64,000 nt of DNA from an uncultured Alphaproteobacteria bacterium. Lineage in GTDB: Bacteria > Pseudomonadota > Alphaproteobacteria > HIMB59 > GCA-002718135. A program made the translations under genes and the position numbers. Below the pieces are notes generated by a model. The model worked only from the letters and a program-made list of their open reading frames with translations. It did no database searches and was not told the origin of the DNA. This document shows, piece by piece, positions 6,409-26,211 of the stretch (the stretch's first letter is position 1; each line of letters opens with the position of its first letter). Where the stretch lies: contig CACIED010000002.1 of the NCBI GenBank assembly GCA_902585605.1, forward strand, positions 3,415 to 67,414, written 5' to 3'.

Positions 6409-7506
6409 ATGAAAAAAAATTTATTATTAATCATTATTTTAAATAGTTTTTTCATATTAAGTTTTTCATCAAATATATTTGCCAAAAAAGCAGCTATAGT
6501 AATCGATTTTGATACTGAAGAAGTTTTATTTGAGGTCAATGCTGATACTAGAAATTATCCAGCATCCCTTACAAAAATAATGACTTTATACATTGTATTT
6601 GATTACATCAAAAAAGGAAATCTAAGCTACGATAGTCAATTGAGTGTATCAAGCGTTGCAGCATCAAGATCACCAAGCAAGCTATATTTAGAAGAAGGTT
6701 CAAGTATTAAAGTAAGAGATGCAGTTAATGCGCTTATAATTAAATCAGCAAATGATGTGGCTACAGTAGTAGCAGAAAATATTTCTGGTAGTGAGAAAGA
6801 ATTTGCAAAACTTATGACAAGCTATGCAAAAAATCTAGGTATGAAAAACACAACATTTAAAAACGCATCTGGTCTTCCAAATAGAGCTCAATTAACAACT
6901 GCAAGAGATATTTCAAAACTATGTCATAAGCTTATTACAAATTTTCCAAATGAATATAAATTGTTCAGTAATACAAAGTTTGCTTACAATGGTAAAACTT
7001 ACAATACTCATAATAAATTAATGTTAAGTTATGAAGGTGCGGATGGAATTAAAACGGGGTATATAAAGGCATCTGGTTTTCAATTAGCTTTTTCAGCTGT
7101 AAGAGACAATAAAAGACTCATTGGTATAATCTTTGGAGGCGACACTGGGAGCCAAAGAAATAAATCTCTTAAAATTATTATGGATAAAGAATTTGCTGAA
7201 TTAAATATCAAAACAAATGATAATAAAAAAGAAATTGTAAAAAAAGAAGTAAAAGAGGTTAAAAAAAATAATTATTCAATTGTTGTTGGAACATTTAAAT
7301 ATAGAAATAATGCTGAAAAACAAATTAAATTAATAAAAAGTAAATATCCAATTTCTACAAAAGATAAAATTTCAAATGTCGTTCTCATAAGAGTTAGCGG
7401 CAAACAACTTTATGAATCTAGATTTGAAAATTTTTCTAAAAAAGAAGCATATACAGCTTGTAAAAGACTAAAAAAATATAACCGAGATTGTTTTGTTAGA
7501 TTGTAA
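6409..7506 (+). CDS. D-alanyl-D-alanine carboxypeptidase (peptidase S11) with C-terminal SPOR-like domain
   Basis: Signal peptide, then SxxK (PASLTK), SAN and KTG motifs. The C-terminal YSIVVGTF...ACKRLK...CF segment is SPOR-like. Confidence 0.92.
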   Translation: MKKNLLLIIILNSFFILSFSSNIFAKKAAIVIDFDTEEVLFEVNADTRNYPASLTKIMTLYIVFDYIKKGNLSYDSQLSVSSVAASRSPSKLYLEEGSSIKVRDAVNALIIKSANDVATVVAENISGSEKEFAKLMTSYAKNLGMKNTTFKNASGLPNRAQLTTARDISKLCHKLITNFPNEYKLFSNTKFAYNGKTYNTHNKLMLSYEGADGIKTGYIKASGFQLAFSAVRDNKRLIGIIFGGDTGSQRNKSLKIIMDKEFAELNIKTNDNKKEIVKKEVKEVKKNNYSIVVGTFKYRNNAEKQIKLIKSKYPISTKDKISNVVLIRVSGKQLYESRFENFSKKEAYTACKRLKKYNRDCFVRL

Positions 7507-8902
7507 ATTTATAATTTACACCACTTAATGACAATTGATTTTCGATAATTTCAATTAGAGATTTGAGACCTTCTTCAGAAGTTGACTCTGCTCTACATGT
7601 TAATTGGTTTTGAGTGTTACTAGCTCTCATTAGAAACCATCCATTATCATTTTCAACTCTTATGCCATCTATGTCAATTAAATTACCCTCAGTATTTTTT
7701 ATCCTGTCTTTAATTTCTTCAATAATTAAAAATTTTTTTGTTTCATCAACATCGAATCTTGTTTCAGGTGTAGAAAATGTTTTAGGATAAACATTAATTA
7801 ATTCATTTAAATTTTTTTCTTGATTACATAATATTCTTAATAACCGTAATGCAACGTACATAGCATCATCATATCCATAAAAATCATCAGCATAACAAAC
7901 ATGACCACTCATCTCTCCAGATAATGGAGAATTCAATTTTTTCATTTTTTCTTTAATGGGTGAATGGCCAGTTTTAGACATTATAGGATCACAATTTAAT
8001 TTTTTTGCTTCATCAAAAAATACTTTACTACATTTAACATCCATAATTATTTTTGGATTATCATATAATTTTGCAATTTCTGTACATAGTAATAACATGT
8101 ATTGATCTGCCCAAACTAAATTACCTAAATTATCTACAACACCTAAACGATCTCCGTCTCCATCAAAGGCAAGACCTATGTCGCATTGGTTGTCTTTAAC
8201 TGATTTTTTTAATTGCTCCATATTCTCTGGAACCGTAGGGTCTGGGTGATGATTTGGAAAATTGCCATCAACTTTTTCATTAATCAAAATGTTTTCAGAA
8301 TTATTTAAATTATCTGTAATTTCTTTAATAACTGATCCCATTGCTCCGTTACCAATATCCCAAGCAATTTTTATTTTCTTATTGAGATTAATGTTTTGTA
8401 ATAATCTTTTAGCATAATCAAGTTTAATATCTTTATTAATAATCTCACCTTCAGTTAATTTAAAGATATCTTGATCAATTATTTTTTGAAGGCTTTGAAT
8501 GTCTTCTGCATAAAAAGAATGTTTAGCTAGAACCATTTTGAAACCATTATATTCTGAAGGGTTGTGTGATCCTGTCACCATTATAACAGCATCAGTTTTA
8601 AGATGATAATGAGCGAAATAAGTCATAGGAGTTGGCCCCATACCAATATTGATAACTTTTGCACCGGAGTCCTTTAATCCTTCACAAAGAGCTTGGTGTA
8701 GATCTGGTGATGTTAATCTTCCATCATAGCCTGTAGCTATTACATTAGATTTTAATCTATTACTTACAGTGTATCCAAAAGTTCTACCTATAGTATAGGC
8801 TGTATTTTGATTTATATTATCTCCAACTACTCCTCTGATGTCATACTCTCTTAAGACCTCTTTATCAAAATTTTCAATTTTCAATTTATTTTCCAGTGCC
8901 AT
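7496..8902 (-). CDS. Phosphomannomutase/phosphoglucomutase (AlgC type)
   Basis: REYDIRG, catalytic TGSHNP, FDGDGDR and GEMSGH. Confidence 0.93.
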   Translation of the reverse strand: MALENKLKIENFDKEVLREYDIRGVVGDNINQNTAYTIGRTFGYTVSNRLKSNVIATGYDGRLTSPDLHQALCEGLKDSGAKVINIGMGPTPMTYFAHYHLKTDAVIMVTGSHNPSEYNGFKMVLAKHSFYAEDIQSLQKIIDQDIFKLTEGEIINKDIKLDYAKRLLQNINLNKKIKIAWDIGNGAMGSVIKEITDNLNNSENILINEKVDGNFPNHHPDPTVPENMEQLKKSVKDNQCDIGLAFDGDGDRLGVVDNLGNLVWADQYMLLLCTEIAKLYDNPKIIMDVKCSKVFFDEAKKLNCDPIMSKTGHSPIKEKMKKLNSPLSGEMSGHVCYADDFYGYDDAMYVALRLLRILCNQEKNLNELINVYPKTFSTPETRFDVDETKKFLIIEEIKDRIKNTEGNLIDIDGIRVENDNGWFLMRASNTQNQLTCRAESTSEEGLKSLIEIIENQLSLSGVNYKFTI

Positions 8903-14662: not shown

Positions 14663-15636
14663 TGAGTAACAATAATTCATATTTAAGTAACTATTTTCAC
14701 AAAAATGGAAGAGCTTTGGGAAGCATAGGATACTTTGTATTATTAATGGTAATTTTTTTAATTGGTGCACCAGAAGCTTGGATTAGACCCAACCTACATC
14801 AATCGGTATTTGTGATGATGCCAACTTTGATATTTTTAACTATTCCATTAGTTTTTTTGGTTGCATCTGGTGAAATCGATCTTTCATTTGCCTCTACTTA
14901 TGCTGTAGCAGCTTACGTTTTTGCTTTACTCGTTAAAAATGGAGTTGATCCAGCTATTTGCTTTGTACTAGGAGTTTTTACTGGCGCAGCTATTGGTGCG
15001 CTTGTTGGAACATTAATTGTTGTATTCAGACTTTCATCTCTTGTTGCATCACTTGGAGTTCTATTTTTACTAAGAGGTGTAATTCTTTTACTGACAAATA
15101 GTAGATCCATTACAATTATGGAAATAGAGAACCACTGGATATACCCTCTTTTAGTTGGAAATTTTTACGGCTTTCCAATGCAAATTTTTTGGGCAGCAAT
15201 ATTTGTAATTTTTTGTTACTATTTTTTTAACAAACATGTTTTTGGAATTCATATTCAACATGTTGGGGACAACTCTGTGAGTGCTGAACAGATGGGTATA
15301 AATGTTAATGCAGTAAAGATTAAAGCTTTCATGTTTGTTGGGATCGGTGCTGCCATAGGTGGAATATTTACAACAATGATAACTTATACATTTTTTCCCA
15401 CTCAAGGCTTTGGTTACTTATTGTTAGCTCTTGCAGCAGTTTTTGTTGGTGGCACTCCATATTGGGGAGGTTTAGGTACTATTATTGGAGCAGTTTTTGG
15501 TGTTGGAATAATTGCTTATATGGAAATTGGTATTATTGCTATTGGTTGGAGTGGTGAGTGGAGGCAATTTTTTAATGGATTGATTATATTATTAGCATTA
15601 TTAGGACATCGTTTACATGGAGAAAGAGTAAGATAA
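14662..15636 (+). CDS. Sugar ABC transporter permease (RbsC/BPD_transp_2)
   Basis: GEIDLS, highly hydrophobic sequence, VFVGGT..GG.GTIIG. Confidence 0.9.
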   Translation: MSNNNSYLSNYFHKNGRALGSIGYFVLLMVIFLIGAPEAWIRPNLHQSVFVMMPTLIFLTIPLVFLVASGEIDLSFASTYAVAAYVFALLVKNGVDPAICFVLGVFTGAAIGALVGTLIVVFRLSSLVASLGVLFLLRGVILLLTNSRSITIMEIENHWIYPLLVGNFYGFPMQIFWAAIFVIFCYYFFNKHVFGIHIQHVGDNSVSAEQMGINVNAVKIKAFMFVGIGAAIGGIFTTMITYTFFPTQGFGYLLLALAAVFVGGTPYWGGLGTIIGAVFGVGIIAYMEIGIIAIGWSGEWRQFFNGLIILLALLGHRLHGERVR

Positions 15637-15642
15637 TACCAA

Positions 15643-16425
15643 ATGACTAATGTTATCATCTGGAATGAAAATATTCATGAAGTAGAAAATAAAGAGGTTG
15701 AAAAAATCTATCCTAATGGCATTCATAATTGTATTAAAGATTTTTTATCTAATGATTCTAATTTAAAGATTAAAACCGCCACATTAAAAGAAGATCAAAA
15801 CGGCTTGAATGAAGAATTACTTAAAAATTGTAGCGTGCTCATATGGTGGGGTCATAAAGCGCATGATGAGGTATTAGATTCAACAGTTGATTTAGTACAA
15901 AGACGAGTTCTTGAGGGTATGGGCTTAATTGTATTACATTCTGGTCATCACTCTAAAATATTTAAAAGACTAATGGGTACAAATTGTAATTTAACTTGGA
16001 GAGAATTTGGTGAAAAAGAGAGGTTATGGATATGCAATCCAGGACATCCAATTTGTGATGGTTTAGAGCCTTATTTTGAAATAGAGATGGAAGAAATGTA
16101 TGGAGAACCTTTTCAAGTACCATCGCCCGATGAGACACTTTTTACAAGCTGGTTTGAAGGTGGGGAAACTTTTAGATCAGGATTACTCTATAAAAGAGGA
16201 AATGGTCAAATATTCTATTTTCGACCAGGTCACGAAGCGTATCCAACTTATCATAATATAAATATTCAAAAAGTAATAAAAAATGCAATACATTTTGTAA
16301 AACAGAAAAATAAAGCTTTGTGGGAAGACATACACTCTCCCACTCCCAAAAGTAATAGATCAAAACCTATTGAAAAAATTAATAAGAAAGGTTTTAGTGT
16401 AGGACATCCTACAGAAGAAAAATGA
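15643..16425 (+). CDS. thuA: Trehalose utilization protein ThuA
   Basis: IWNENIHE, YPNGIH, WWGHKAH, LHSGHHSK, EEMYGEPF and FRPGHEAYPTY, all characteristic of ThuA. Confidence 0.9.
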   Translation: MTNVIIWNENIHEVENKEVEKIYPNGIHNCIKDFLSNDSNLKIKTATLKEDQNGLNEELLKNCSVLIWWGHKAHDEVLDSTVDLVQRRVLEGMGLIVLHSGHHSKIFKRLMGTNCNLTWREFGEKERLWICNPGHPICDGLEPYFEIEMEEMYGEPFQVPSPDETLFTSWFEGGETFRSGLLYKRGNGQIFYFRPGHEAYPTYHNINIQKVIKNAIHFVKQKNKALWEDIHSPTPKSNRSKPIEKINKKGFSVGHPTEEK

Positions 16426-16426
16426 A

Positions 16427-17482
16427 ATGAAAATTGGTATTGTCGGAACAGGAAATATTTCATCAAGGCATTTTGAAGAATTTAACAATATAACAAATGT
16501 CAACGTTGAAGCTGTTTGTGATACAAATAAAAAAAATTTAGAAAAATTTTTAACAAATTATAAAAATACAGATATCAGAGGGTATTTAAGCTTAGATGAA
16601 ATGCTTGAAAAAGAAAAAACATTTGATGGTATTAGTAATACAACACCTGATAAATTTCATAAAGAAACTACACTACAAATTTTAAAAAGTGGATATAATG
16701 TTTTTTGTGAAAAACCACTTGCTGAAAATTATAGTGATGCAAAAGATATGGTTTATGCGGCAGTACAATCCAAAAAAATTAATATGGTTAATTTTACTTA
16801 TAGGGAATCAAGCGCATATCAAAAATTAGTAGAAATATTAAAATCTGGAGAGATCGGAAATCCTAGACACGTAAGCGCTTGTTATTATCAGTCATGGCTT
16901 GCAAGTAACAAATGGGGTGATTGGAGAAAAGAGGATAAGTGGTTATGGAGACTTTCTACGAAACATGGAAGTAATGGTGCTTTAGGAGACACGGGTGTTC
17001 ATATTTTTGATTTTGCTGTGAATGCTGTAGGAGATATCAGAGAAATATGTGCTGATTTAAAAACATATTTCGATAAAGGAAATAAAATAAAAGAATATAC
17101 CCTAGATGCAAATGATGGATTTAATTCCTTAGTTAGATTTGAAAATGGAGCTATTGGAACAGTAACCAATACAAGATTTGCAACAGGACATGCAAACTCC
17201 TTAATTCTAGAAGTATTTTGCACTAAAGGCGCTGTAAAGGTTGAGTTAGATGAGGAAAGAACAAAATGGTCGACGCTTCATATTTGTATAAATGAAAATA
17301 TTAATAAAATGTCTTGGGATAAAATAGAGTGTCCAAAAACACCTAGCAATTATCAAAATTTTGTACAGTCAATAAAAACAAACTTGAATATGCAGCCAGA
17401 TTTTTATCAAGGTGCTAAAATTCAAAATATTATTGATAAATGTATAGAAAGTAATGAAATTAATAGCTGGGTTAAAGTTTAA
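16427..17482 (+). CDS. thuB: Gfo/Idh/MocA oxidoreductase, ThuB-like (putative glycoside 3-dehydrogenase)
   Basis: CEKPLA, WLWRLSTKHGSNGALGDTGVHIFD; directly after thuA. Confidence 0.75.
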   Translation: MKIGIVGTGNISSRHFEEFNNITNVNVEAVCDTNKKNLEKFLTNYKNTDIRGYLSLDEMLEKEKTFDGISNTTPDKFHKETTLQILKSGYNVFCEKPLAENYSDAKDMVYAAVQSKKINMVNFTYRESSAYQKLVEILKSGEIGNPRHVSACYYQSWLASNKWGDWRKEDKWLWRLSTKHGSNGALGDTGVHIFDFAVNAVGDIREICADLKTYFDKGNKIKEYTLDANDGFNSLVRFENGAIGTVTNTRFATGHANSLILEVFCTKGAVKVELDEERTKWSTLHICINENINKMSWDKIECPKTPSNYQNFVQSIKTNLNMQPDFYQGAKIQNIIDKCIESNEINSWVKV

Positions 17483-17526
17483 TAGAACAAAATAGTTAAT
17501 TTTTTACCAAAAAAAATTATTATAAA

Positions 17527-17554
17527 TTGACAATATGTAATCATGGGATATTTG
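17527..17554 (+). promoter_or_regulatory. Putative promoter upstream of aglE
   Basis: TTGACA at 17527-17532 with only a weak -10 candidate (TATTTG, 17549-17554); SD TAGGAGGA at 17566-17573. Confidence 0.35.
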
Positions 17555-17576
17555 TTTTTATAAATTAGGAGGATTA

Positions 17577-18887
17577 ATGAATTACACAATTAAAAGTTTA
17601 ATAATGTTTATCTCTTCATTATTTCTAAGTTTGTCTGCATTTGCAGGTGGTCATTCTTATTCTGGTCCAGATCTAAGTGGTCAAAAAATTACTGTTTTTG
17701 GTCCATGGTTAGCACCACAAGATGATGACTTTAGAGATGTTGTTTCAATTTTTGAAAAAGCTACTGGAGCAACTGTTGAGTACGGTGGTTCAGATAGTTT
17801 TGAACAACAAGTAATGATTGACTTGAAAGCTGGAAGTGCTGCAGATGCTGTTATTTTCCCACAACCTGGATTAGCCGCTAATGCAGCAGCAATGGGAGGA
17901 TTAGTTCCTCTTGGTGATGATATAAAGGAAATGGTTTTAGATGATTATGCTGCTGGACAATCATGGGTAGATCTAACAACTTATGCTGATGAAAATGGTG
18001 TTGATCAATTCATGGGAGTATTTTTTAGAGTAAATGTAAAAAGTTTAGTTTGGTATTCTCCAGATAACTTTGAAGATAATGGTTATGAAATTCCAGAAAC
18101 AATGGAAGAGCTGATTGCATTAACTGATCAAATGGCTTCAGATGGAAATACACCCTGGTGTATTGGTTTGGGTTCTGGTGCAGCTACTGGCTGGCCTGCA
18201 ACTGACTGGATGGAAGACATTATGCTAAGAACTCATTCACCAGAGGTCTATGACATGTGGGTTTCTAATGAAATGCCATTTAATGATCCACGAGTTATTG
18301 AAGCAATGGATACTTTTGGTTCATTTGCCTTAAATGATAGTTATGTAAATGGTGGAAGTAAAGCTGTTGCAACTACAGATTTTAGAGATGCTCCAAATGG
18401 ATTATTTACATCTCCAGCTGAGTGTATGATGCATAGACAAGCTAGCTTTATCCCAGCTTTCTTTCCTGAAGGATCTGAGGCAGGAGTTGATTATGACTTC
18501 TTCTATTTCCCAGCATTTGCGGGTAAAGATCTTGGAAAGCCAGTTTTAGGTGCAGGTACTCTTGTAGCTGCAACCAATGATAATGCTGCAACTATTGAGT
18601 TCATGAAATTTTTATTACACCCTGAACCAAATGAAAGATTTATGGAAAAAGGAGGTTTCTTAACTCCTCATAAAGGTGTTGATAAAAATAAATACTCAAG
18701 TGAAACATTTAAGGGTCTTCACGATATTCTTTTGGGCGCTACTACATTTAGATTTGATGGATCAGATCTAATGCCTGGTGCTATCGGCGCTGGAACTTTC
18801 TGGACTGGTATGGTTGATTATACCAATGGAAAATCAGCAAAAGATGTAGCAGATGCAATCCAAGACAGTTGGGATGCTATTAAGTAA
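17577..18887 (+). CDS. aglE: Alpha-glucoside ABC transporter substrate-binding protein AglE-like
   Basis: FPQPGL, NVKSLVWY, WCIGLGSGAATGWPATDWMED, HRQASFI and FRFDGSDLMPGAIGAG. Confidence 0.85.
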   Translation: MNYTIKSLIMFISSLFLSLSAFAGGHSYSGPDLSGQKITVFGPWLAPQDDDFRDVVSIFEKATGATVEYGGSDSFEQQVMIDLKAGSAADAVIFPQPGLAANAAAMGGLVPLGDDIKEMVLDDYAAGQSWVDLTTYADENGVDQFMGVFFRVNVKSLVWYSPDNFEDNGYEIPETMEELIALTDQMASDGNTPWCIGLGSGAATGWPATDWMEDIMLRTHSPEVYDMWVSNEMPFNDPRVIEAMDTFGSFALNDSYVNGGSKAVATTDFRDAPNGLFTSPAECMMHRQASFIPAFFPEGSEAGVDYDFFYFPAFAGKDLGKPVLGAGTLVAATNDNAATIEFMKFLLHPEPNERFMEKGGFLTPHKGVDKNKYSSETFKGLHDILLGATTFRFDGSDLMPGAIGAGTFWTGMVDYTNGKSAKDVADAIQDSWDAIK

Positions 18888-18901
18888 TTTAAAATAATTA
18901 C

Positions 18902-18936
18902 CAGGCGAACAAATGACTTGTTCGCCTGTTTTTTTT
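18902..18936 (+). terminator. Intrinsic terminator between aglE and aglF
   Basis: 11-bp perfect stem CAGGCGAACAA/TTGTTCGCCTG, 5-nt loop, then 8 T. Confidence 0.85.
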
Positions 18937-18952
18937 ATATATTGACTTTTCA

Positions 18953-19936
18953 ATGACCATCCTAAATTTATTTTTTGTTGTTTTTTTAGGAATATTATTT
19001 TTTGTAAGTTATTTTCATATTTCTAACTTAGTTCTAGATACTTATGGTGAGAAAAGTGTAAAAAGATATAATTTTGAAAATTCAATAAGAGTAATAATTT
19101 TTATTGCACCTGCTTTTATTGTTTTATTTATATTTATTTTATATCCAGTTTTTGAAACTGTTAGACTTAGTTTTTATGATAAATTTGGAAGAGAATTTGT
19201 TGGATTTTACAATTATAAATGGGCAATTAGTGATCCTGAGTTCAGAAGAAGCATATTAAACAATTTAATTTGGTTACTTGTTGTGCCAACATTAAGCACT
19301 TTTTTTGGATTGGTTATTGCAAAGCTAGCAGATAATATTTGGTGGGGATCAATTGCAAAATCAATAATATTTATGCCTATGGCAATATCATTTGTTGGTG
19401 CTGGTGTTATATGGAAATTTATTTATGAATACAGAGGGCCTGGAGATACCCAAATAGGGCTACTTAATGCAATTATAGTTTCATTTGGCTACGAACCTCA
19501 AGCCTGGATAACGATTCCATTTTGGAATAACTTTTTTTTAATGGCTATAATGATTTGGATTCAAACAGGATTGGCGCTGGTAATATTTAGTGCTGCTTTA
19601 AGAAGTATACCTAAAGAAATGCTGGAAGCTGCAAGAATTGATGGAGCTAGTGAATTAAAAATATTTTTTTCTATTATTATACCCTATTTAGAACAAACAA
19701 TTCTTGTCATTTGGACTTTGATAACAATTATTGTTCTAAGAATTTTTGATATTATTTTTGCTATGACAAATGGGGAATGGCAAACTGGAGTATTAGCTAA
19801 TTTAATGTATGATTGGATGTTTAGGGGTGGAGGAGACTCTGGAAGAGGTAGTGTTCTAGCTATAGTAATTATGATTGGGGTAATACCAATCCTAGCTTGG
19901 AATTTATATAAACATAGACAGGAACAAAAAATATAA
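18953..19936 (+). CDS. aglF: Alpha-glucoside ABC permease AglF-like
   Basis: PMAISFVGAGVIWKFIY, QIGLLNA and the EAA loop (EAARIDGASE). Confidence 0.85.
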   Translation: MTILNLFFVVFLGILFFVSYFHISNLVLDTYGEKSVKRYNFENSIRVIIFIAPAFIVLFIFILYPVFETVRLSFYDKFGREFVGFYNYKWAISDPEFRRSILNNLIWLLVVPTLSTFFGLVIAKLADNIWWGSIAKSIIFMPMAISFVGAGVIWKFIYEYRGPGDTQIGLLNAIIVSFGYEPQAWITIPFWNNFFLMAIMIWIQTGLALVIFSAALRSIPKEMLEAARIDGASELKIFFSIIIPYLEQTILVIWTLITIIVLRIFDIIFAMTNGEWQTGVLANLMYDWMFRGGGDSGRGSVLAIVIMIGVIPILAWNLYKHRQEQKI

Positions 19937-21075
19937 TGAAGAAAATTTCATTATCATCAATCTTATCACAATTATTATTATTATTTTTTGTAATTATATG
20001 GATCATTCCGACGTTTGGACTTTTTATAAGTTCTCTAAGAGATAAAGATTTACTAGCTATCAGTGGCTGGTGGACATCTTTGACTACAACTGAAATAAAT
20101 GAAATTTATAGAATGCCTGGAATGAATGCACAAATTGAAGAAGGGGGATATTTTAAAATTAAAGGAAATTTATTTGAAGAAAATTCTGGAAAAAAAATCC
20201 AAAGTTTTGGAATAACTTCAAAAAAAATTAATGAATTCAATGTTAGTGAGGTAGCAGTTTTTAAAGATGAGAGCGAAGTAACTGTAGATGAAGATGGAAA
20301 TTATGAATGGCTATCAAAGGAGGCATTTAAAAAGAAAAAAGGTAAAAGGTTATTTACAACATCTTTAAGTCCACCTTCATTTACTTTTGAAAATTATAGA
20401 GAAGTTTTATTTAAAGAAGGAATTGGAAGAGCATTTATTAATACAATGGCTGTTGCCCTACCATCTACTTTAATTCCATTAATAATATGTTCTTTTTTTG
20501 CATATTCATTAACATGGATGAAATTTTATGGAAGGGATACACTTTTAGCAATAATAATTGCATCTCTGGTTGTTCCACTTCAAATGTCTCTAATACCAAT
20601 ACTTACAATTTATAATGATTTTGGTGCATTATTTGGTGTTGCAGCTAAATCATATCCAGGAGTATGGATGGCTCATACTGGTTTTGGATTAGCATCAACT
20701 ACCTTTTTATTAAGAAATTTTTTAAAAAGTTTACCTAATGAAATGATGGAGGCAGCTAAAGTTGATGGTGCGTCTCATTATGATATTTTTTTACGCATAA
20801 TTATACCTTTATCAATACCAGCCTTTGCATCAATATTTATATTACAATTTTTATGGTGCTGGAATGATCTATTAGTTGGTCTTGTATTTTTGGATCAAGT
20901 TCCAAGTGAAATAATTTTAACTGCTAAGTTAAAAGAGTTACTTGGATCTAGAGGAGAAAATTGGGAAATCTTAACAACTGGGGCTTTTGTGTCAATGACA
21001 GTTCCTTTATTTATCTTTTTTGCCTTACAGAGATATTTTATAAGAGGTTTAGTAGCTGGATCAGTTAAGGGTTGA
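19936..21075 (+). CDS. aglG: Alpha-glucoside ABC permease AglG-like
   Basis: SGWW followed by a periplasmic insertion, VPLQM, EAAKVDGAS and WNDLLV. Confidence 0.85.
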   Translation: MKKISLSSILSQLLLLFFVIIWIIPTFGLFISSLRDKDLLAISGWWTSLTTTEINEIYRMPGMNAQIEEGGYFKIKGNLFEENSGKKIQSFGITSKKINEFNVSEVAVFKDESEVTVDEDGNYEWLSKEAFKKKKGKRLFTTSLSPPSFTFENYREVLFKEGIGRAFINTMAVALPSTLIPLIICSFFAYSLTWMKFYGRDTLLAIIIASLVVPLQMSLIPILTIYNDFGALFGVAAKSYPGVWMAHTGFGLASTTFLLRNFLKSLPNEMMEAAKVDGASHYDIFLRIIIPLSIPAFASIFILQFLWCWNDLLVGLVFLDQVPSEIILTAKLKELLGSRGENWEILTTGAFVSMTVPLFIFFALQRYFIRGLVAGSVKG

Positions 21076-21128
21076 ACGTTAAAACATATTGATTTTTGTT
21101 TGAATTTATCGTTAAATGAAATGATATT

Positions 21129-21150
21129 TGTATGATGATGTTTTCATACA
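21129..21150. promoter_or_regulatory. Inverted repeat TGTATGA-N8-TCATACA upstream of aglK (operator or RNA hairpin)
   Basis: Perfect 7-bp arms in the 103-bp aglG-aglK gap, downstream of a TTGATT-N17-TTAAAT promoter-like motif at 21089-21117. Confidence 0.4.
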
Positions 21151-21178
21151 CTTGAAAGATCGCTCAAAGGAGGATGAA

Positions 21179-22258
21179 GTGGCAGATATAAATATAAATA
21201 CTGTTAATAAATATTTTGGAGACGTTCACGTAATTAAAGACGTATCTCTAGATATCAAAAGTCAATCATTCACAGTTCTAGTTGGACCAAGTGGTTGTGG
21301 AAAATCGACTATGTTAAGAATGATTGCAGGACTAGAAGATATAAATTCAGGTACAATTTCAATTGATGGTCAAGTAGTTAATGATTTGCCACCAAAACAA
21401 AGAAATATTGCAATGGTGTTTCAGTCATATGCATTATACCCTCACATGACTGTATTTGATAACATGGCTTTTGGTTTGAAATTAGAAAAAAGATCAAAAG
21501 ATGAAATTAATGAAAGAGTTAATGAGGCAGCAAGAATTCTTCAAATAGAAGATTATCTTCAAAGAAAGCCAAAGCAACTTTCAGGTGGTCAAAGACAACG
21601 TGTTGCTATTGGAAGAGCAATTACAAGAAAGCCAAAAGTTTTCTTATTTGATGAACCACTTTCAAACCTTGATGCTGCATTAAGAGTTCAAATGAGAGTT
21701 GAATTAGCAAAGCTTCATAATGAACTAGAAGCAACAATGATTTACGTTACACACGATCAGACAGAAGCAATGACTTTAGCTGATGATATTGTTGTTCTTG
21801 ATACAGGTATCGTTTCACAAAAAGGATCTCCACTTGAACTTTATGACAGGCCCAATAATATGTTCGTAGGTGGATTTATTGGATCACCAAAAATGAACTT
21901 TATTTCTAGTAAGATATTAAGCAAAAGTTCTGATGCTACAGAAGTTGATATTATGGGAATGTCAAAAATATCAGTTTCAAAAATGTCAGCATCCTCCTCA
22001 GAGGGTGATTCAGTAACGCTAGGTATTAGACCTGAACACTTAGTAGTAAATGGTGACTCAGATGGATCTTGGGAAAGTAAAGTATTTGTTGTTGAAAAAC
22101 TTGGTGACGTTACTTACCTATACCTTGAAAAAGATGGAGAGCCATTAGTAGCTGAAACTGAAGGACATTCAGAAATTAAAGTTGGAGATACTGTAAAAGT
22201 TGGTTTTCCTGCTGGAAGATGCCAGTTATTTGACAGTTCAGGACAAGCATTTAAATAA
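21179..22258 (+). CDS. aglK: Carbohydrate ABC ATP-binding protein (MalK/AglK type) with TOBE domain
   Basis: GPSGCGKS, FQSYALYPH, LSGGQRQR and FDEPLSNLD. GTG 21179 follows SD AGGAGGA (21168-21174), so the track start at 21128 is too far upstream. Confidence 0.92.
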   Translation: MADININTVNKYFGDVHVIKDVSLDIKSQSFTVLVGPSGCGKSTMLRMIAGLEDINSGTISIDGQVVNDLPPKQRNIAMVFQSYALYPHMTVFDNMAFGLKLEKRSKDEINERVNEAARILQIEDYLQRKPKQLSGGQRQRVAIGRAITRKPKVFLFDEPLSNLDAALRVQMRVELAKLHNELEATMIYVTHDQTEAMTLADDIVVLDTGIVSQKGSPLELYDRPNNMFVGGFIGSPKMNFISSKILSKSSDATEVDIMGMSKISVSKMSASSSEGDSVTLGIRPEHLVVNGDSDGSWESKVFVVEKLGDVTYLYLEKDGEPLVAETEGHSEIKVGDTVKVGFPAGRCQLFDSSGQAFK

Positions 22259-22273
22259 TAGAATCGTATTGAT

Positions 22274-22299
22274 TATTGCCTCTAATATAAGGGGCAATA
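22274..22299 (+). terminator. Probable terminator hairpin after aglK
   Basis: 10-bp stem TATTGCCTCT/AGGGGCAATA (one G-U), 6-nt loop, T6 run starting 6 nt downstream. Confidence 0.6.
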
Positions 22300-22300
22300 C

Positions 22301-22448
22301 ATCCCTTTTTTAAAAATTTTCAATAAATAGCATAAATTTAAACTAAAATAATATCGGGCAGAGGGTTCATATTATTTCCTCCTATAAGAAGTATTCCTCT
22401 TATAAAACTTTTCTGCCCACCAAATTTGAAAAGTTATTTAAGAGGGAT
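22301..22448 (+). ncRNA. Candidate rod-like structured RNA (unassigned; 6S-like or anti-SD sRNA)
   Basis: 22301-22323 pairs with 22426-22448 (19 of 23 positions), 22356-22367 pairs with 22406-22418, and an apical hairpin spans 22383-22404. The G-U pairs form only on the + strand. Confidence 0.4.
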
Positions 22449-22453
22449 ACCAA

Positions 22454-23605
22454 TTATAGTTTTTGTTTTGCAGTCCAAGAATTTTTCTTATTTATTGGAA
22501 TATGTTTATTAAGAGTTAAAAGAACATTTTCAGCTAATTTTCTATACGTCGTTAGTTTTCCTCCATAGATGTTTAATAATGGTGCCTTTGAACCATCCTC
22601 ATTTAAGTCGAATATATAGTCTCTAGTAATCTTTGATGCTTCTTTGAAGTCTTCAATAAGTGGTCTAATTCCAGAATAAGAACTTACTACATCATCACTC
22701 GATATTTGTTTAATGAAATACTTATTTACTGAATTTAATAAATAATCAATTTCACTTTCATCAATTTTTGGATTTTCTGGTGAAAAAACTTCTGTTTCGG
22801 TGGTGCCAATAAGAGAATATTCATCTTTATAGGGTATAACAAAAATTATTCTGTTATCTTCATTTTGTAAAGTGAAAGCTTTTTTTTGACTGTAAAGACT
22901 TTTAGTTATTATGTGACTACCTTTTACAAGTCGAATTGATTTATTTGAATTTAATTTAATGACATTACTTAAAACTTCATTTATCCAAGGCCCAGCAGCA
23001 TTTATAAGGATTTTAGATTTAAGTATAGTATTATCATCTAAAGTTATATCCCAAATATTTTCATTTCGTTTTGCATCTATTACTTTTCTATTTTGAATAA
23101 TCGTAGCCCCTTTTTTCTTTGCATCTTCAACATTTAACTGAACAAGTTTTTTATCATCAACTTGTAAATCATAATATTGGAAACCAATTTTAAATTGATC
23201 CTTTAAAATATTAGGCATTTCCTTTTTAATGTTTATAGTTGAAGATTTTGGTATAGTCATTTTACCACCAATATTATCGTATAAAAATAATCCTAATTTA
23301 ATTAACCATTTAGGTCTTAAAGATTTTTGATAAGGTATAATAAAAGGTATTGGTGTTGTTATATTACTGGCAATTTTTTTAATTACCTCTCTTTCCTTGA
23401 GAGATTCACGTACAAGTCGAAATTCATAATTTTCAAGATACCTTAATCCGCCATGTATTAATTTTGTAGACCAAGATGAAGTGGCTGAGCCAACTGTGTT
23501 TTTTTCAACTAAACAAACTTTTAAATTTCTGCCTGATGCATCTCTAACAATTCCAGCACCATTAATACCTCCACCAATAACTAAAATATCAAAAGTTTCA
23601 TTCAT
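22454..23605 (-). CDS. glpD: FAD-dependent glycerol-3-phosphate dehydrogenase GlpD-like, C-terminally short (383 aa)
   Basis: GGGINGAG, STKLIHGGLRYLE, KGSHI, GIRPL and GGKLTTYR. It ends at ...SWTAKQKL, without the usual LPGG and the domain that follows. Confidence 0.8.
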   Translation of the reverse strand: MNETFDILVIGGGINGAGIVRDASGRNLKVCLVEKNTVGSATSSWSTKLIHGGLRYLENYEFRLVRESLKEREVIKKIASNITTPIPFIIPYQKSLRPKWLIKLGLFLYDNIGGKMTIPKSSTINIKKEMPNILKDQFKIGFQYYDLQVDDKKLVQLNVEDAKKKGATIIQNRKVIDAKRNENIWDITLDDNTILKSKILINAAGPWINEVLSNVIKLNSNKSIRLVKGSHIITKSLYSQKKAFTLQNEDNRIIFVIPYKDEYSLIGTTETEVFSPENPKIDESEIDYLLNSVNKYFIKQISSDDVVSSYSGIRPLIEDFKEASKITRDYIFDLNEDGSKAPLLNIYGGKLTTYRKLAENVLLTLNKHIPINKKNSWTAKQKL

Positions 23606-23612
23606 GCTTAAA

Positions 23613-24203
23613 TTAAATAAATCTATTAATTTCGTGAATTATTATTTCAGGGTCAGTTAAATGTATAGTTAAAAAACCAAGTTTCTTTGCAGCATCAATA
23701 TTCTCTTTTTTATCATCAATAAATACAGTTTCCTCTGGAATTAGATTAAAACGACTTGTAGCTAATTTATATATTTCAGCATTAGGTTTAACCAATTTTT
23801 CTTTTCCAGATATTATTAGTCCATCAAATTTATTTAAGAATGGATATTTTTTATCCATATCTTGAAATGTTTCCCAAGACCAATTTGACAAAACATAACA
23901 CTCATATTGTTTATTTTTTAAATGATCTAAAACATCTACTGAATACTGAAAGATTTTTCTGAACATTTTATGATGATTTTTATAATATAATTTAATTTTA
24001 TCTTCATAATCAGGATAAGTTTTGATTAGATCAGTTTCAGCATCTTTTATAAGTCTTCCAGCATCTTGTTGGATATTCCATTCATCATTGCAAATATTAT
24101 TGAGAAAACTGTCTCTTTCTTCTTTGTCTTTAATTACATCTTTATAAAAATAATGAGGATCCCAATCAAAAAAAACACCACCTAAATCAAAAAGAAATTT
24201 CAT
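23613..24203 (-). CDS. HAD-superfamily phosphatase (YihX-like subfamily IA)
   Basis: FDLGGV, LSNW, KLVKP and FIDD. Confidence 0.85.
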   Translation of the reverse strand: MKFLFDLGGVFFDWDPHYFYKDVIKDKEERDSFLNNICNDEWNIQQDAGRLIKDAETDLIKTYPDYEDKIKLYYKNHHKMFRKIFQYSVDVLDHLKNKQYECYVLSNWSWETFQDMDKKYPFLNKFDGLIISGKEKLVKPNAEIYKLATSRFNLIPEETVFIDDKKENIDAAKKLGFLTIHLTDPEIIIHEINRFI

Positions 24204-24235
24204 GTATAAGTATTTTGTTTATAAATAATTATTAA

Positions 24236-25096
24236 ATGAGTGCATTAATAGACTATATTCAAATAGAAATACACAAAACATATAATAAAAAATATTCTAA
24301 GAAGTATATAGAAGATAAATTAATTCCAATAATAAATTATATTTGCTCTAGTAAATCAAAAAAATTCCTATTTGGAGGGTCTCAGGGTATTGGAAAATCA
24401 TCATTTATTAATATTATCTCTAAAACTATTGAAAAATTTTATAATAAGAAAATACTTTTACTTAGTTTAGATAATTATTATTTATCAAGAAAACAACGAT
24501 CTCAATTATCAAAAAAAATACATCAATTGTTAATAACTCGAGGTGTTCCAGGAACACATGATATTGAAAAATTACTTAAAAATATAAAACAATTCAATAA
24601 AGGTAAATACCCTATCACAACTCCTATATTTGATAAGTTGATTGATGATACGACTAAATCAACAAAAATAACTAAAACTAAATGTGATATTCTTTTCTTA
24701 GAAGGTTGGTGTTGTGGAAGTTCAGAAATTCCAAAAAAAATTCTTCATAAAAATATAAATAATTTAGAAAAAATTAAAGATCCAAAATATCAATGGAGAA
24801 ATTTCTATAATAATAAATTAAAATTAGAATATAAAAAATTATTTAAATTATTTGATGAATTTATTTTTTTGAAAACATCCTCTTTTGATAATGTTTTCAA
24901 ATGGCGGTTAAAGCAGGAAAAAACTAATCAATCAAAAAACAAAAAATCAAAAAGAATGACTTCAAATGAAATTAAATATTTTGTTCAACATTATGAGAAA
25001 ATAACTAAATGGATGATGAAGGATCTAAATAAAAAAGCTCAGATAGTTATTAAATTTGAAAAGAATCATAAAATTTCTTCAATAAATTTTAACTAG
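24236..25096 (+). CDS. P-loop kinase, D-glycerate 3-kinase (GLYK)-like / uridine kinase-PRK superfamily
   Basis: GSQGIGKS, SLDNYYL, TRGVPGTHD, LEGWC and WRLKQE. Confidence 0.7.
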   Translation: MSALIDYIQIEIHKTYNKKYSKKYIEDKLIPIINYICSSKSKKFLFGGSQGIGKSSFINIISKTIEKFYNKKILLLSLDNYYLSRKQRSQLSKKIHQLLITRGVPGTHDIEKLLKNIKQFNKGKYPITTPIFDKLIDDTTKSTKITKTKCDILFLEGWCCGSSEIPKKILHKNINNLEKIKDPKYQWRNFYNNKLKLEYKKLFKLFDEFIFLKTSSFDNVFKWRLKQEKTNQSKNKKSKRMTSNEIKYFVQHYEKITKWMMKDLNKKAQIVIKFEKNHKISSINFN

Positions 25097-25551
25097 AAAA
25101 AAATCCATCTTTTAACCGAATTACAATATCTTTCGAATTCATCACCAAATTTATCTTTTAAATATTTTTCCTCTTCATAAATTACAAAATTATTTAACCA
25201 AAAAAATAATCCTATAGAACAAATAAAATACATAATGTTTTCAAAAGTAAGAAACATACCAAAATGAAATAAAACAAAACATAGATAAATTGGATTTCTA
25301 GAGTAAGCATAAATTCCAGTTTTTATAATTCTATTTGTTTCAGTTTGAGGAGGTAGTTTTTCTTCATGTGCATTAAATGCATTTCTTGAGGAAAAAAATA
25401 CAATTGGCATTAAAATTATAATTAATAATCCAAAAAGATTAAGAATATATAGCAGTGGATATTTAGGAAAAATAAATTCACCTAAAATGTAGGAGGCTAT
25501 CAAAAGATAGACTGAAATATAAAGTGGATTTCCTTTTACATCTGGTCCCAT
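25093..25551 (-). CDS. ICMT/PEMT-family membrane methyltransferase
   Basis: TGIYAYSRNPIY and EEKYLKDKFGDEFERY..V.RW. Confidence 0.85.
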   Translation of the reverse strand: MGPDVKGNPLYISVYLLIASYILGEFIFPKYPLLYILNLFGLLIIILMPIVFFSSRNAFNAHEEKLPPQTETNRIIKTGIYAYSRNPIYLCFVLFHFGMFLTFENIMYFICSIGLFFWLNNFVIYEEEKYLKDKFGDEFERYCNSVKRWIFF

Positions 25552-26211
25552 TTAAAGTTCCTCTATTGCCTTACCTAAACTTTCATAATCACTAAATACA
25601 TTCAAAGCACCATTGTCAAATAATTCATTTTTATCTCTATTTGAATGCCAATGTTTTCCTGCAGTAAGACCAAATACCTTTACTCCTGCTGCAGTTGCTG
25701 CTTTAACACCTACGCCACTATCTTCGATAATGACTGTTTCTTCAATATTAAGTGAATTATCATTTACAACTCTCAAGTATATATCAGGATCAGGTTTTGG
25801 TCTTTTTACCATATCAAATGAGTAAACCTGATCACTTAAAAAAAATTCATCTAATTCAACAAGCTTTAAACCATCCAGAATTCTATCCTTATTACTATTA
25901 GATCCAATAAAATGATTTCTTTCTGATTTACTGATATAGTGTTTTGCTCCTTTGACTAGTTTTAAATCCTTGGAATAAACTTCTGAAACAATATCAAATA
26001 TTTCGTTTGTAAATTTTTCTTTGTTTTCAACCTTATATTCATCAGATAATAAATCTATTACTTCGACTGTTTTTTTTCCGGCATATTTATAAAATTGCTC
26101 CTCTTTAATTGATTGATCAAATTTATTAAAATATTTGGAAAATGCCTTAGAAGCTAAGACCTCACTATCAACTATTACTCCATCAAAATCAAAAATTATA
26201 TTTTTAATCAT
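25552..26211 (-). CDS. HAD-superfamily hydrolase (beta-PGM/CbbY-like)
   Basis: FDFDGVIVDSE, SNS, KPDPDIY and IEDS..GV.AA. Confidence 0.88.
   Translation of the reverse strand: MIKNIIFDFDGVIVDSEVLASKAFSKYFNKFDQSIKEEQFYKYAGKKTVEVIDLLSDEYKVENKEKFTNEIFDIVSEVYSKDLKLVKGAKHYISKSERNHFIGSNSNKDRILDGLKLVELDEFFLSDQVYSFDMVKRPKPDPDIYLRVVNDNSLNIEETVIIEDSGVGVKAATAAGVKVFGLTAGKHWHSNRDKNELFDNGALNVFSDYESLGKAIEEL

Follow-up and report, generated by a model that had tools for sequence, protein, structure and literature searches.

Agl importer, ThuAB, short GlpD and GLYK-type kinase genes of a HIMB59-order genus as neighbours in probably separate transcription units

We analysed positions 15643-25096 of a 64,000-nt stretch of DNA (the window; GC about 29%) from an uncultured, small marine alphaproteobacterium of the AEGEAN-169/HIMB59 order, in which genes for a ThuA/ThuB pair and for an alpha-glucoside importer (aglEFGK) are followed by genes for a GlpD-like dehydrogenase, a HAD phosphatase (HAD1) and a GLYK-like P-loop kinase. 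An earlier note had read this neighbourhood as a possible module for the heteroside osmolytes glucosylglycerol and glucosylglycerate, whose aglycones, glycerol or glycerate, would be salvaged after import. We consider it probable that the genes are three independent transcription units that lie side by side in a region rich in carbohydrate genes, and variable in part, in genomes of one genus of this order. In the first unit, thuAB and aglEFGK would specify an Agl-type importer of alpha-glucoside disaccharides (trehalose, sucrose and maltose for the rhizobial Agl system), with the ThuA/ThuB pair replacing AglA as the cytoplasmic partner and oxidising the disaccharide to its 3-keto form as in rhizobia. 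In the second, a HAD1-glpD operon, a shortened FAD-dependent GlpD would oxidise sn-glycerol-3-phosphate (G3P), supplied by a canonical GlpK encoded on another contig, to dihydroxyacetone phosphate (DHAP). The third would be a single-gene GLYK-type D-glycerate 3-kinase that feeds glycerate into 3-phosphoglycerate; its ortholog in the sister family would recycle glycerate in a GLYK-GpgP-GpgS-GGaP operon (GGaP, glucosylglycerate phosphorylase), and the window's genus would keep the kinase as a stand-alone enzyme. Each component belongs to a known family. The analysis shows gene identities, orthology, strands, synteny and absences; the substrates and fluxes named here are what we infer. The comparison covered 41 related genomes: 25 of the window's genus (g1, in family f1), including the window genome G000, and 16 of the sister family (f2, genus g2).

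Strands, gaps and hairpins in the window

The open reading frames and families beside aglK are those that the earlier note had described, without weighing their orientation. Six genes lie on the plus strand: thuA (15643-16425; 260 aa, a ThuA-domain protein with PF06283 at 107 bits and the ThuA-like structure 1T0B in PDB at 2.7e-93); thuB (16427-17482; 351 aa, a Gfo/Idh/MocA oxidoreductase with the N- and C-terminal GFO_IDH_MocA domains of Pfam); aglE (17577-18887; 436 aa), encoding a periplasmic alpha-glucoside-binding protein, that is, a CUT1 substrate-binding protein (SBP), assigned by orthology to Sinorhizobium meliloti AglE; the permease genes aglF (18953-19936) and aglG (19936-21075), both BPD_transp_1; and aglK (21128-22258; 376 aa, TTG start), encoding a MalK/UgpC-type ATPase with ABC_tran, OB_MalK and TOBE_2 domains and an NCBIfam UgpC-subfamily score of 465 bits (cut-off 432). 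The short glpD (22454-23605; 383 aa, FAD glycerol-3-phosphate dehydrogenase) lies on the minus strand, and HAD1 (23613-24203; 196 aa, HAD-IA phosphatase, HAD_2) is co-directional with it, 7 bp upstream. This pair is convergent with aglK across a 195-bp gap, inside which a terminator-like hairpin follows aglK on the plus strand (22274-22299), and divergent from the kinase gene across a 32-bp gap. The kinase gene (24236-25096; 286 aa), predicted to be monocistronic, lies on the plus strand, and its stop overlaps by 4 bp an ICMT/PEMT-like membrane methyltransferase gene (25093-25551, minus strand; PF04191), the last gene of a minus-strand amino-sugar operon that is outside the claimed module.

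Because of these orientations, the hairpins and the overlap of the kinase gene with a minus-strand operon, the stretch is read as at least three transcription units with predicted boundaries, not as one module. The position of glpD-HAD1 "directly after aglK" is therefore one of position only and not of co-transcription, since the pair is convergent with aglK and a hairpin lies between them. A further GC-rich hairpin with a T-run, terminator- or attenuator-like, stands 3' of aglE on the plus strand (18902-18928; stem of 11-12 bp with 6 GC pairs, then TTTTTTTT). A scan of positions 15000-25600 against Rfam at E-values up to 1 found no family. Because only 6 bp separate an upstream CUT2 permease gene from thuA (15636-15643), against 94 bp between thuB and aglE (17482-17577), co-transcription of thuAB with the upstream MocD-like/aldehyde dehydrogenase/CUT2 cassette may be equally possible. 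In several relatives, a paralog of the MocD-like desaturase gene is found between thuB and aglE.

The kinase and glucosylglycerate operons

The label "GLYK-like" given to the kinase at first reading was right: among solved structures it is closest to yeast YGR205W (1ODF, 5e-17, residues 28-264) and the D-glycerate 3-kinases 6CKG (9.5e-15) and 7XPC (3.5e-8). No Pfam family, PRK included, matched it above threshold. Across 80 homologs from other lineages, 58 columns reach a conservation of at least 85%; the kinase retains 50 of them, and keeps the Walker A motif GSQGIGKS, the putative catalytic D79, RGVPGTHD, EGWC and WRLKQE (WRxxQE). It thus shares with the plant, cyanobacterial and fungal GLYK enzymes (7XPC, 6CKG, 1ODF) the Walker A pattern xxQGxGK(S/T), S-x-D-D/N-x-Y-L, RG-x-PGTHD, EGW and WR-x-x-QE, although the overall identity to them is low. 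The Walker A motif of plant GLYK reads APQGCGKT (PMC11772331). Within S-x-D-D-x-Y-L, the window kinase carries D80N; this Asp is invariant in the 80 homologs from outside the family and is changed only in the window's subclade (nine sequences).

The kinase was detected in 36 of the 41 genomes. Since class I (PF02595) and class II (PF05161) glycerate kinases are absent from all 41, it is the only recognisable candidate glycerate kinase of the order. The sister-family ortholog (37-44% identity) is part of an operon GLYK-GpgP-GpgS, usually with GGaP (loci L023:5798-13746 in genome G027 and L021:9537-12447 in G025). GpgS and GpgP occur in 10 of the 16 genomes of that family, and the four that are without the kinase are also without both. 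The GpgP is an MPGP-family HAD-IIB phosphatase; the GpgS-like synthase aligns with NF040724 from end to end, at 358-364 bits against an equivalog cut-off of 700; and the GGaP is a 575-aa protein of glycoside hydrolase (GH) subfamily GH13_18 with the motif ITETN, 36-37% identical to the characterised glucosylglycerate phosphorylase YcjM of Escherichia coli. A glucosylglycerate operon of glycerate kinase, GpgP, GpgS and GH13_18 phosphorylase was reportedly set out by Franceus and colleagues in 2017. Eighty loci from other bacteria included 18 with the kinase-GpgP-GpgS cassette, spanning Gammaproteobacteria, Desulfuromonas and Pontiellaceae, and 16 of these 18 also contain a GH13_18 gene. In the literature, GGaP is marked by a (T/S)ETN motif and by frequent gene linkage to glycerate kinase, GpgS and GpgP (PMC7178133). 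We rejected the E. coli ycj cluster as a counterpart of the window: YcjM resembles the sister-family GGaP, but YcjN and YcjS show no close similarity to AglE and ThuB of the window.

In a maximum-likelihood tree, the kinases of the window's family and the glucosylglycerate-linked kinases of the sister family form sister clades (SH-aLRT 100), and together they are sister to stand-alone kinases of Pelagibacteraceae, which adjoin tolC-like and recA genes. Because the sister-family ortholog sits in a glucosylglycerate operon, glycerate is supported as the substrate, and the window kinase is probably a D-glycerate 3-kinase. With a glpK present elsewhere in the genome (C5:26106-27587), the kinase substrate, which the earlier note had held to be the key unknown, would be largely settled. 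The kinase's evolutionary tie to glucosylglycerate metabolism is, as judged from orthology and operon context, genuine at the level of the order. To this extent the heteroside link is partly supported, for the substrate of the kinase and for the order's tie to glucosylglycerate; it is not supported as a module in this genome, where the units are separate and an aglycone-releasing enzyme is missing. Whereas the window kinase is a vertical ortholog of the operon's kinase in the sister family, it stands alone, and GpgS, GpgP and GGaP are absent from the window genome and the other 24 of the genus; tblastn of the whole of G000 with sister-family probes found none of the three either. Probing G000 with E. 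coli Gcl, Hyi and GlxR for a glyoxylate-to-glycerate route gave only distant, paralog-level matches (Gcl 30%, GlxR 33%) and no Hyi.

The glucosylglycerate cassette of the sister family is best read as an endogenous synthesis-and-recycling loop. An SBP and two permeases encoded upstream of it were considered as a dedicated glucosylglycerate importer and rejected, as 87%-identical orthologs occur in eight genomes of the window's genus that have no glucosylglycerate genes. These eight, which do not include G000, show the same SnoaL/LacI context, with the CUT1 SBP and two permeases followed by HAD and short-chain dehydrogenase/reductase genes (e.g. L121:5774-10446 in G018, and L122 in G016). Since the transporter context is the same in genomes without glucosylglycerate genes, the cassette would have been inserted or lost beside a pre-existing transporter.

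The Agl importer and its partner enzymes

The window's AglE, AglF, AglG and AglK are 56, 60, 53 and 55% identical to their S. meliloti counterparts and encoded in the same order. For AglE, the closest characterised relative found for the window SBP, this identity extends over 94% of the length; it is 61% to the Ruegeria TM1040 ortholog and 78-80% to orthologs in the sister family. None of the solved structures is close to it (best E-value 7.6e-11, AcbH). The homology of the cyanobacterial glucosylglycerol importer GgtBCD to AglEFG, which the earlier note had brought up, would amount to no more than the general kinship of CUT1 systems. The window AglK is 53% identical to S. meliloti ThuK, and ThuE has no match to the window SBP. 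Because of the latter result, the transporter is assigned as Agl-type rather than ThuEFG. With its identities of 53-60%, it is a true ortholog of rhizobial AglEFGK. The window ThuA is 54.4% identical to the ThuA of the S. meliloti pSymB locus thuR-thuEFGK-thuAB, and the window ThuB matches S. meliloti ThuB with 41.5% identity from end to end, against 22% to E. coli YcjS.

The rhizobial agl locus has the order aglR-aglE-aglF-aglG-aglA(GH13)-aglK, which is the same in Ruegeria TM1040. The window shares with S. meliloti aglEFGAK the order E-F-G-...-K, with the SBP, both permeases and the ATPase 53-60% identical, but it has no GH13 aglA between aglG and aglK (the gap is 52 bp) and no adjacent LacI-type aglR, and has thuAB upstream instead. 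No AglA homolog was found in the whole of G000 by tblastn with the S. meliloti probe. The rhizobial thuEFGKAB system takes up trehalose, maltitol and sucrose isomers, which ThuAB oxidises to 3-keto forms. The window resembles it in having thuA and thuB adjacent to each other and linked to a CUT1 disaccharide importer; however, this importer is Agl-type, and thuAB lie ahead of the transporter genes and right behind a CUT2 cassette. The window would thus be a hybrid, combining Agl transport, without aglA, with ThuAB. In rhizobia, AglEFGAK and ThuEFGK are transporters of trehalose, maltose and sucrose, and ThuAB is the major trehalose route (PMC3518184); ThuAB makes 3-keto-disaccharides, and the genes acting after the 3-keto step are not known (PMC8121099).

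In genome G004 (L029:3518-10435) the order is aglE-aglF-aglG-thuA-thuB-aglK, so that thuAB stand in the exact slot of the GH13 gene aglA of rhizobia and roseobacters. In the sister family this slot is filled by a GH4 glycosidase gene (aglEFG-GH4-aglK-GH1-...). Because thuAB occupy the aglA slot in G004 and GH4 holds the same slot in the sister family, we argue that thuAB would be functionally coupled to agl. The string of G025 (L033:4964-14004, corresponding to C1:501963-511003) runs aglE-aglF-aglG-GH4-aglK-GH1-GGaP with a divergent LacI regulator, GGaP being its last gene after a 91-bp gap, and that of G027 (L034) ends in GH42 instead of GGaP. As these strings end differently, the Agl importer of the HIMB59 order is paired with different glycosidases in different genomes.

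A reading that we regard as unlikely follows the earlier note more closely: AglEFGK would import heterosides (glucosylglycerate, glucosylglycerol), cleavage would be initiated by ThuAB, GLYK would convert glycerate to 3-phosphoglycerate, and GlpK with GlpD would convert glycerol to DHAP. Both heterosides are alpha-glucosides, the class of substrates that Agl takes, the kinase has its orthologs in glucosylglycerate operons, and the adjacency is conserved across the genus; glucosylglycerate is a major solute of Prochlorococcus. The G025 string, which ends in a GGaP with the ITETN motif and whose AglE is 78% identical to the window's, also speaks for this reading. However, in nine of the ten sister-family genomes that have GGaP, it belongs to the GLYK-GpgP-GpgS operon and not to agl. 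In addition to GpgS, GpgP and GGaP, the 25 genomes of the window's genus have no GH13 of any kind, no GH63-like glucosylglycerate hydrolase, no GH65 and no GH37. GH4, GH1 and GH42 (tblastn with sister-family probes) and GH31 are all absent from G000, with GH31 occurring in only six other genomes of the genus. Because all of these and AglA are absent, the window's genome is predicted to have no known enzyme that would release glycerate or glycerol from a heteroside. The units are also split between the two strands and separated by a terminator-like site, and this, like the variability of the neighbourhood described below, counts against heteroside salvage as a module.

A version that dispenses with hydrolases, for a genus that would have lost all recognisable alpha-glucosidases and phosphorylases, would have ThuAB oxidise the alpha-glucosides imported by Agl, picocyanobacterial glucosylglycerate among them, with the 3-keto intermediate shedding its aglycone and the kinase, GlpK and the short GlpD capturing glycerate or glycerol. 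The neighbourhood would then be a multi-promoter heteroside salvage island. We think this version very unlikely.

Short GlpD, HAD1 and the conserved neighbourhood

The window GlpD matches NF008899 (positions 4-392 of 508) at 521.5 bits, well above the equivalog cut-off of 360. In all genomes of the window's genus GlpD is without the C-terminal 95-110 aa or so (383-394 aa), whereas it is full-length in the sister family (478-485 aa); the genus thus appears to have a stable shortened enzyme and not a pseudogene. Its length is presumably similar to that of the short Mycoplasma-type GlpO. The earlier note had seen no glpK in the window, and there is indeed none on the window's contig: tblastn with the GlpK of a relative gave hits only on contigs C5 and C1 of this genome. 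The C5 gene (26106-27587) encodes a 493-aa protein 55% identical to the GlpK of G025, a genome in which glpK comes immediately after a full-length glpD (478 aa). Because glpK is present in the genome, GlpD would be supplied in the ordinary way, without any need for the kinase to act on glycerol. The C5 glpK stands alone beside a topoisomerase subunit gene, and a gene for an IolE-like TIM-barrel protein (by eye) and a GATase-like gene adjoin (region C5:24364-25257). Compared with the E. coli-type GlpD/GlpK pair, the window GlpD scores above the equivalog cut-off and GlpK is present in the genome, but GlpD is without its C-terminal domain, glpK is on another contig, and glpD is predicted to be co-transcribed with a HAD phosphatase gene. 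The NCBIfam matches of HAD1 are weak and below cut-off (e.g. YihX-type glucose-1-phosphatase, 52 bits); its ortholog in G025 (51% identity) follows xylA.

HAD1, the short GlpD and the kinase might alternatively form a genus-specific C3-phosphate module with altered specificities, in which, for example, the kinase acts on another C3/C4 polyol or acid and GlpD oxidises its phosphate ester in the style of EryA/EryB for erythritol. The divergent pair of HAD1 and kinase, with its 32-bp gap, is kept in almost all loci of the family, GlpD is uniformly shortened in the genus, locus L042 has a GpsA-like dehydrogenase gene in place of HAD1-glpD, and D80N changes an otherwise invariant column in the window's subclade. 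Nevertheless, we judge such a module quite improbable, given the score of GlpD, the presence of a canonical GlpK, a kinase that keeps most of its conserved columns and groups with the glycerate kinases of glucosylglycerate operons, and genes that are unlinked in the sister family.

Of the 18 distinct loci from the window's family, 14 preserve the order aglK, glpD-HAD1, kinase, so the adjacency is not unique to this genome, as the earlier note had required for its proposal. Its further expectation, that glpD and the kinase would co-occur with thuAB-agl in relatives, was borne out for aglK-glpD-HAD1-kinase within the family, but aglEFG and thuAB are variable there and the loci are unlinked in the sister family. 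Upstream of aglK, about 10 loci have aglEFG, L015, L040 and L043 have other CUT1 permeases, and L017 and L042 have a CUT2 cassette; the glpD-HAD1-kinase block stands without aglEFG and thuAB in all five of these. Six genomes of the genus have glpD with no aglE detected (these are 59-89% complete). There is no such linkage in the sister family, where aglE, glpD, HAD1 and the kinase gene stand at four separate places, in G025 at about 510, 232, 642 and 109 kb, respectively. Throughout these changes of the upstream cassette (L015, L017, L040, L042 and L043, the CUT2 form being with or without GH4), aglK is fixed in position and 86-100% identical. The pattern resembles a constant ATPase gene bordering a sugar-uptake island of changing content.

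In the window's family the kinase is most consistently flanked by the ICMT-like and HAD2 genes, which are convergent with it, and by the divergent HAD1, rather than by the importer genes. This bears on another alternative, in which the kinase serves the convergent amino-sugar/sugar-acid operon (GMC oxidoreductase, enolase-superfamily dehydratase, SIS, NagA, HAD2 and ICMT-like genes), either by phosphorylating glycerate from the cleavage of a 2-keto-3-deoxy sugar acid or by supplying the sugar kinase that the operon is missing. The ICMT-HAD2 pair is the steadiest companion of the kinase throughout the family, L042 and L045 among the loci, and the stop of the kinase gene overlaps the ICMT-like gene by 4 bp. 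However, their orientation is convergent, the kinase retains the motifs of the GLYK family, the genes around its orthologs are quite different in the sister family and in Pelagibacteraceae, and no aldolase was identified beside it. We accordingly give this alternative little credence.

Several observations weigh against our preferred reading of three independent units. Genomes as compact as these can reflect function in their gene order, and that of aglK, glpD-HAD1 and kinase is kept in the 14 loci mentioned. In L042, from a second lineage (6882-7907; single amplified genome AG-404-D18), a gene for a GpsA-like NAD-dependent G3P dehydrogenase lies between aglK and the kinase, at the spot of HAD1-glpD; a second, unrelated type of dehydrogenase at this spot hints at a tie of the kinase to glycerol-phosphate-type chemistry. 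The GGaP gene at the end of the agl operon of G025 suggests that Agl could carry glucosylglycerate. Finally, G000 is only 91.7% complete, so its absences are not absolute, yet they hold in 25 of 25 genomes of the genus. The GpsA-like gene of L042 has no homolog in G000; G025 has one with 35% identity in the vicinity of glpD-glpK.

On the reading of three independent units, what stands out in this genus is an aglA-less Agl importer with ThuAB in a genome without any alpha-glucosidase, an orphaned kinase of the glucosylglycerate type and a short GlpD. This raises the question of the fate of alpha-glucosides in a cell that has ThuAB as the only partner enzyme, and the same question exists in rhizobia. 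If the salvage of heterosides were true, an abundant, streamlined heterotroph that takes up and burns picocyanobacterial glucosylglycerate or glucosylglycerol would give oligotrophic oceans a concrete link in their carbon flow. The evidence presented here narrows where such a link may lie: the sister (HIMB59-like) family has the full make-and-recycle operon, with one genome carrying the phosphorylase in its agl operon, and in the window's genus there are just the kinase and an Agl importer that has ThuAB as its partner.

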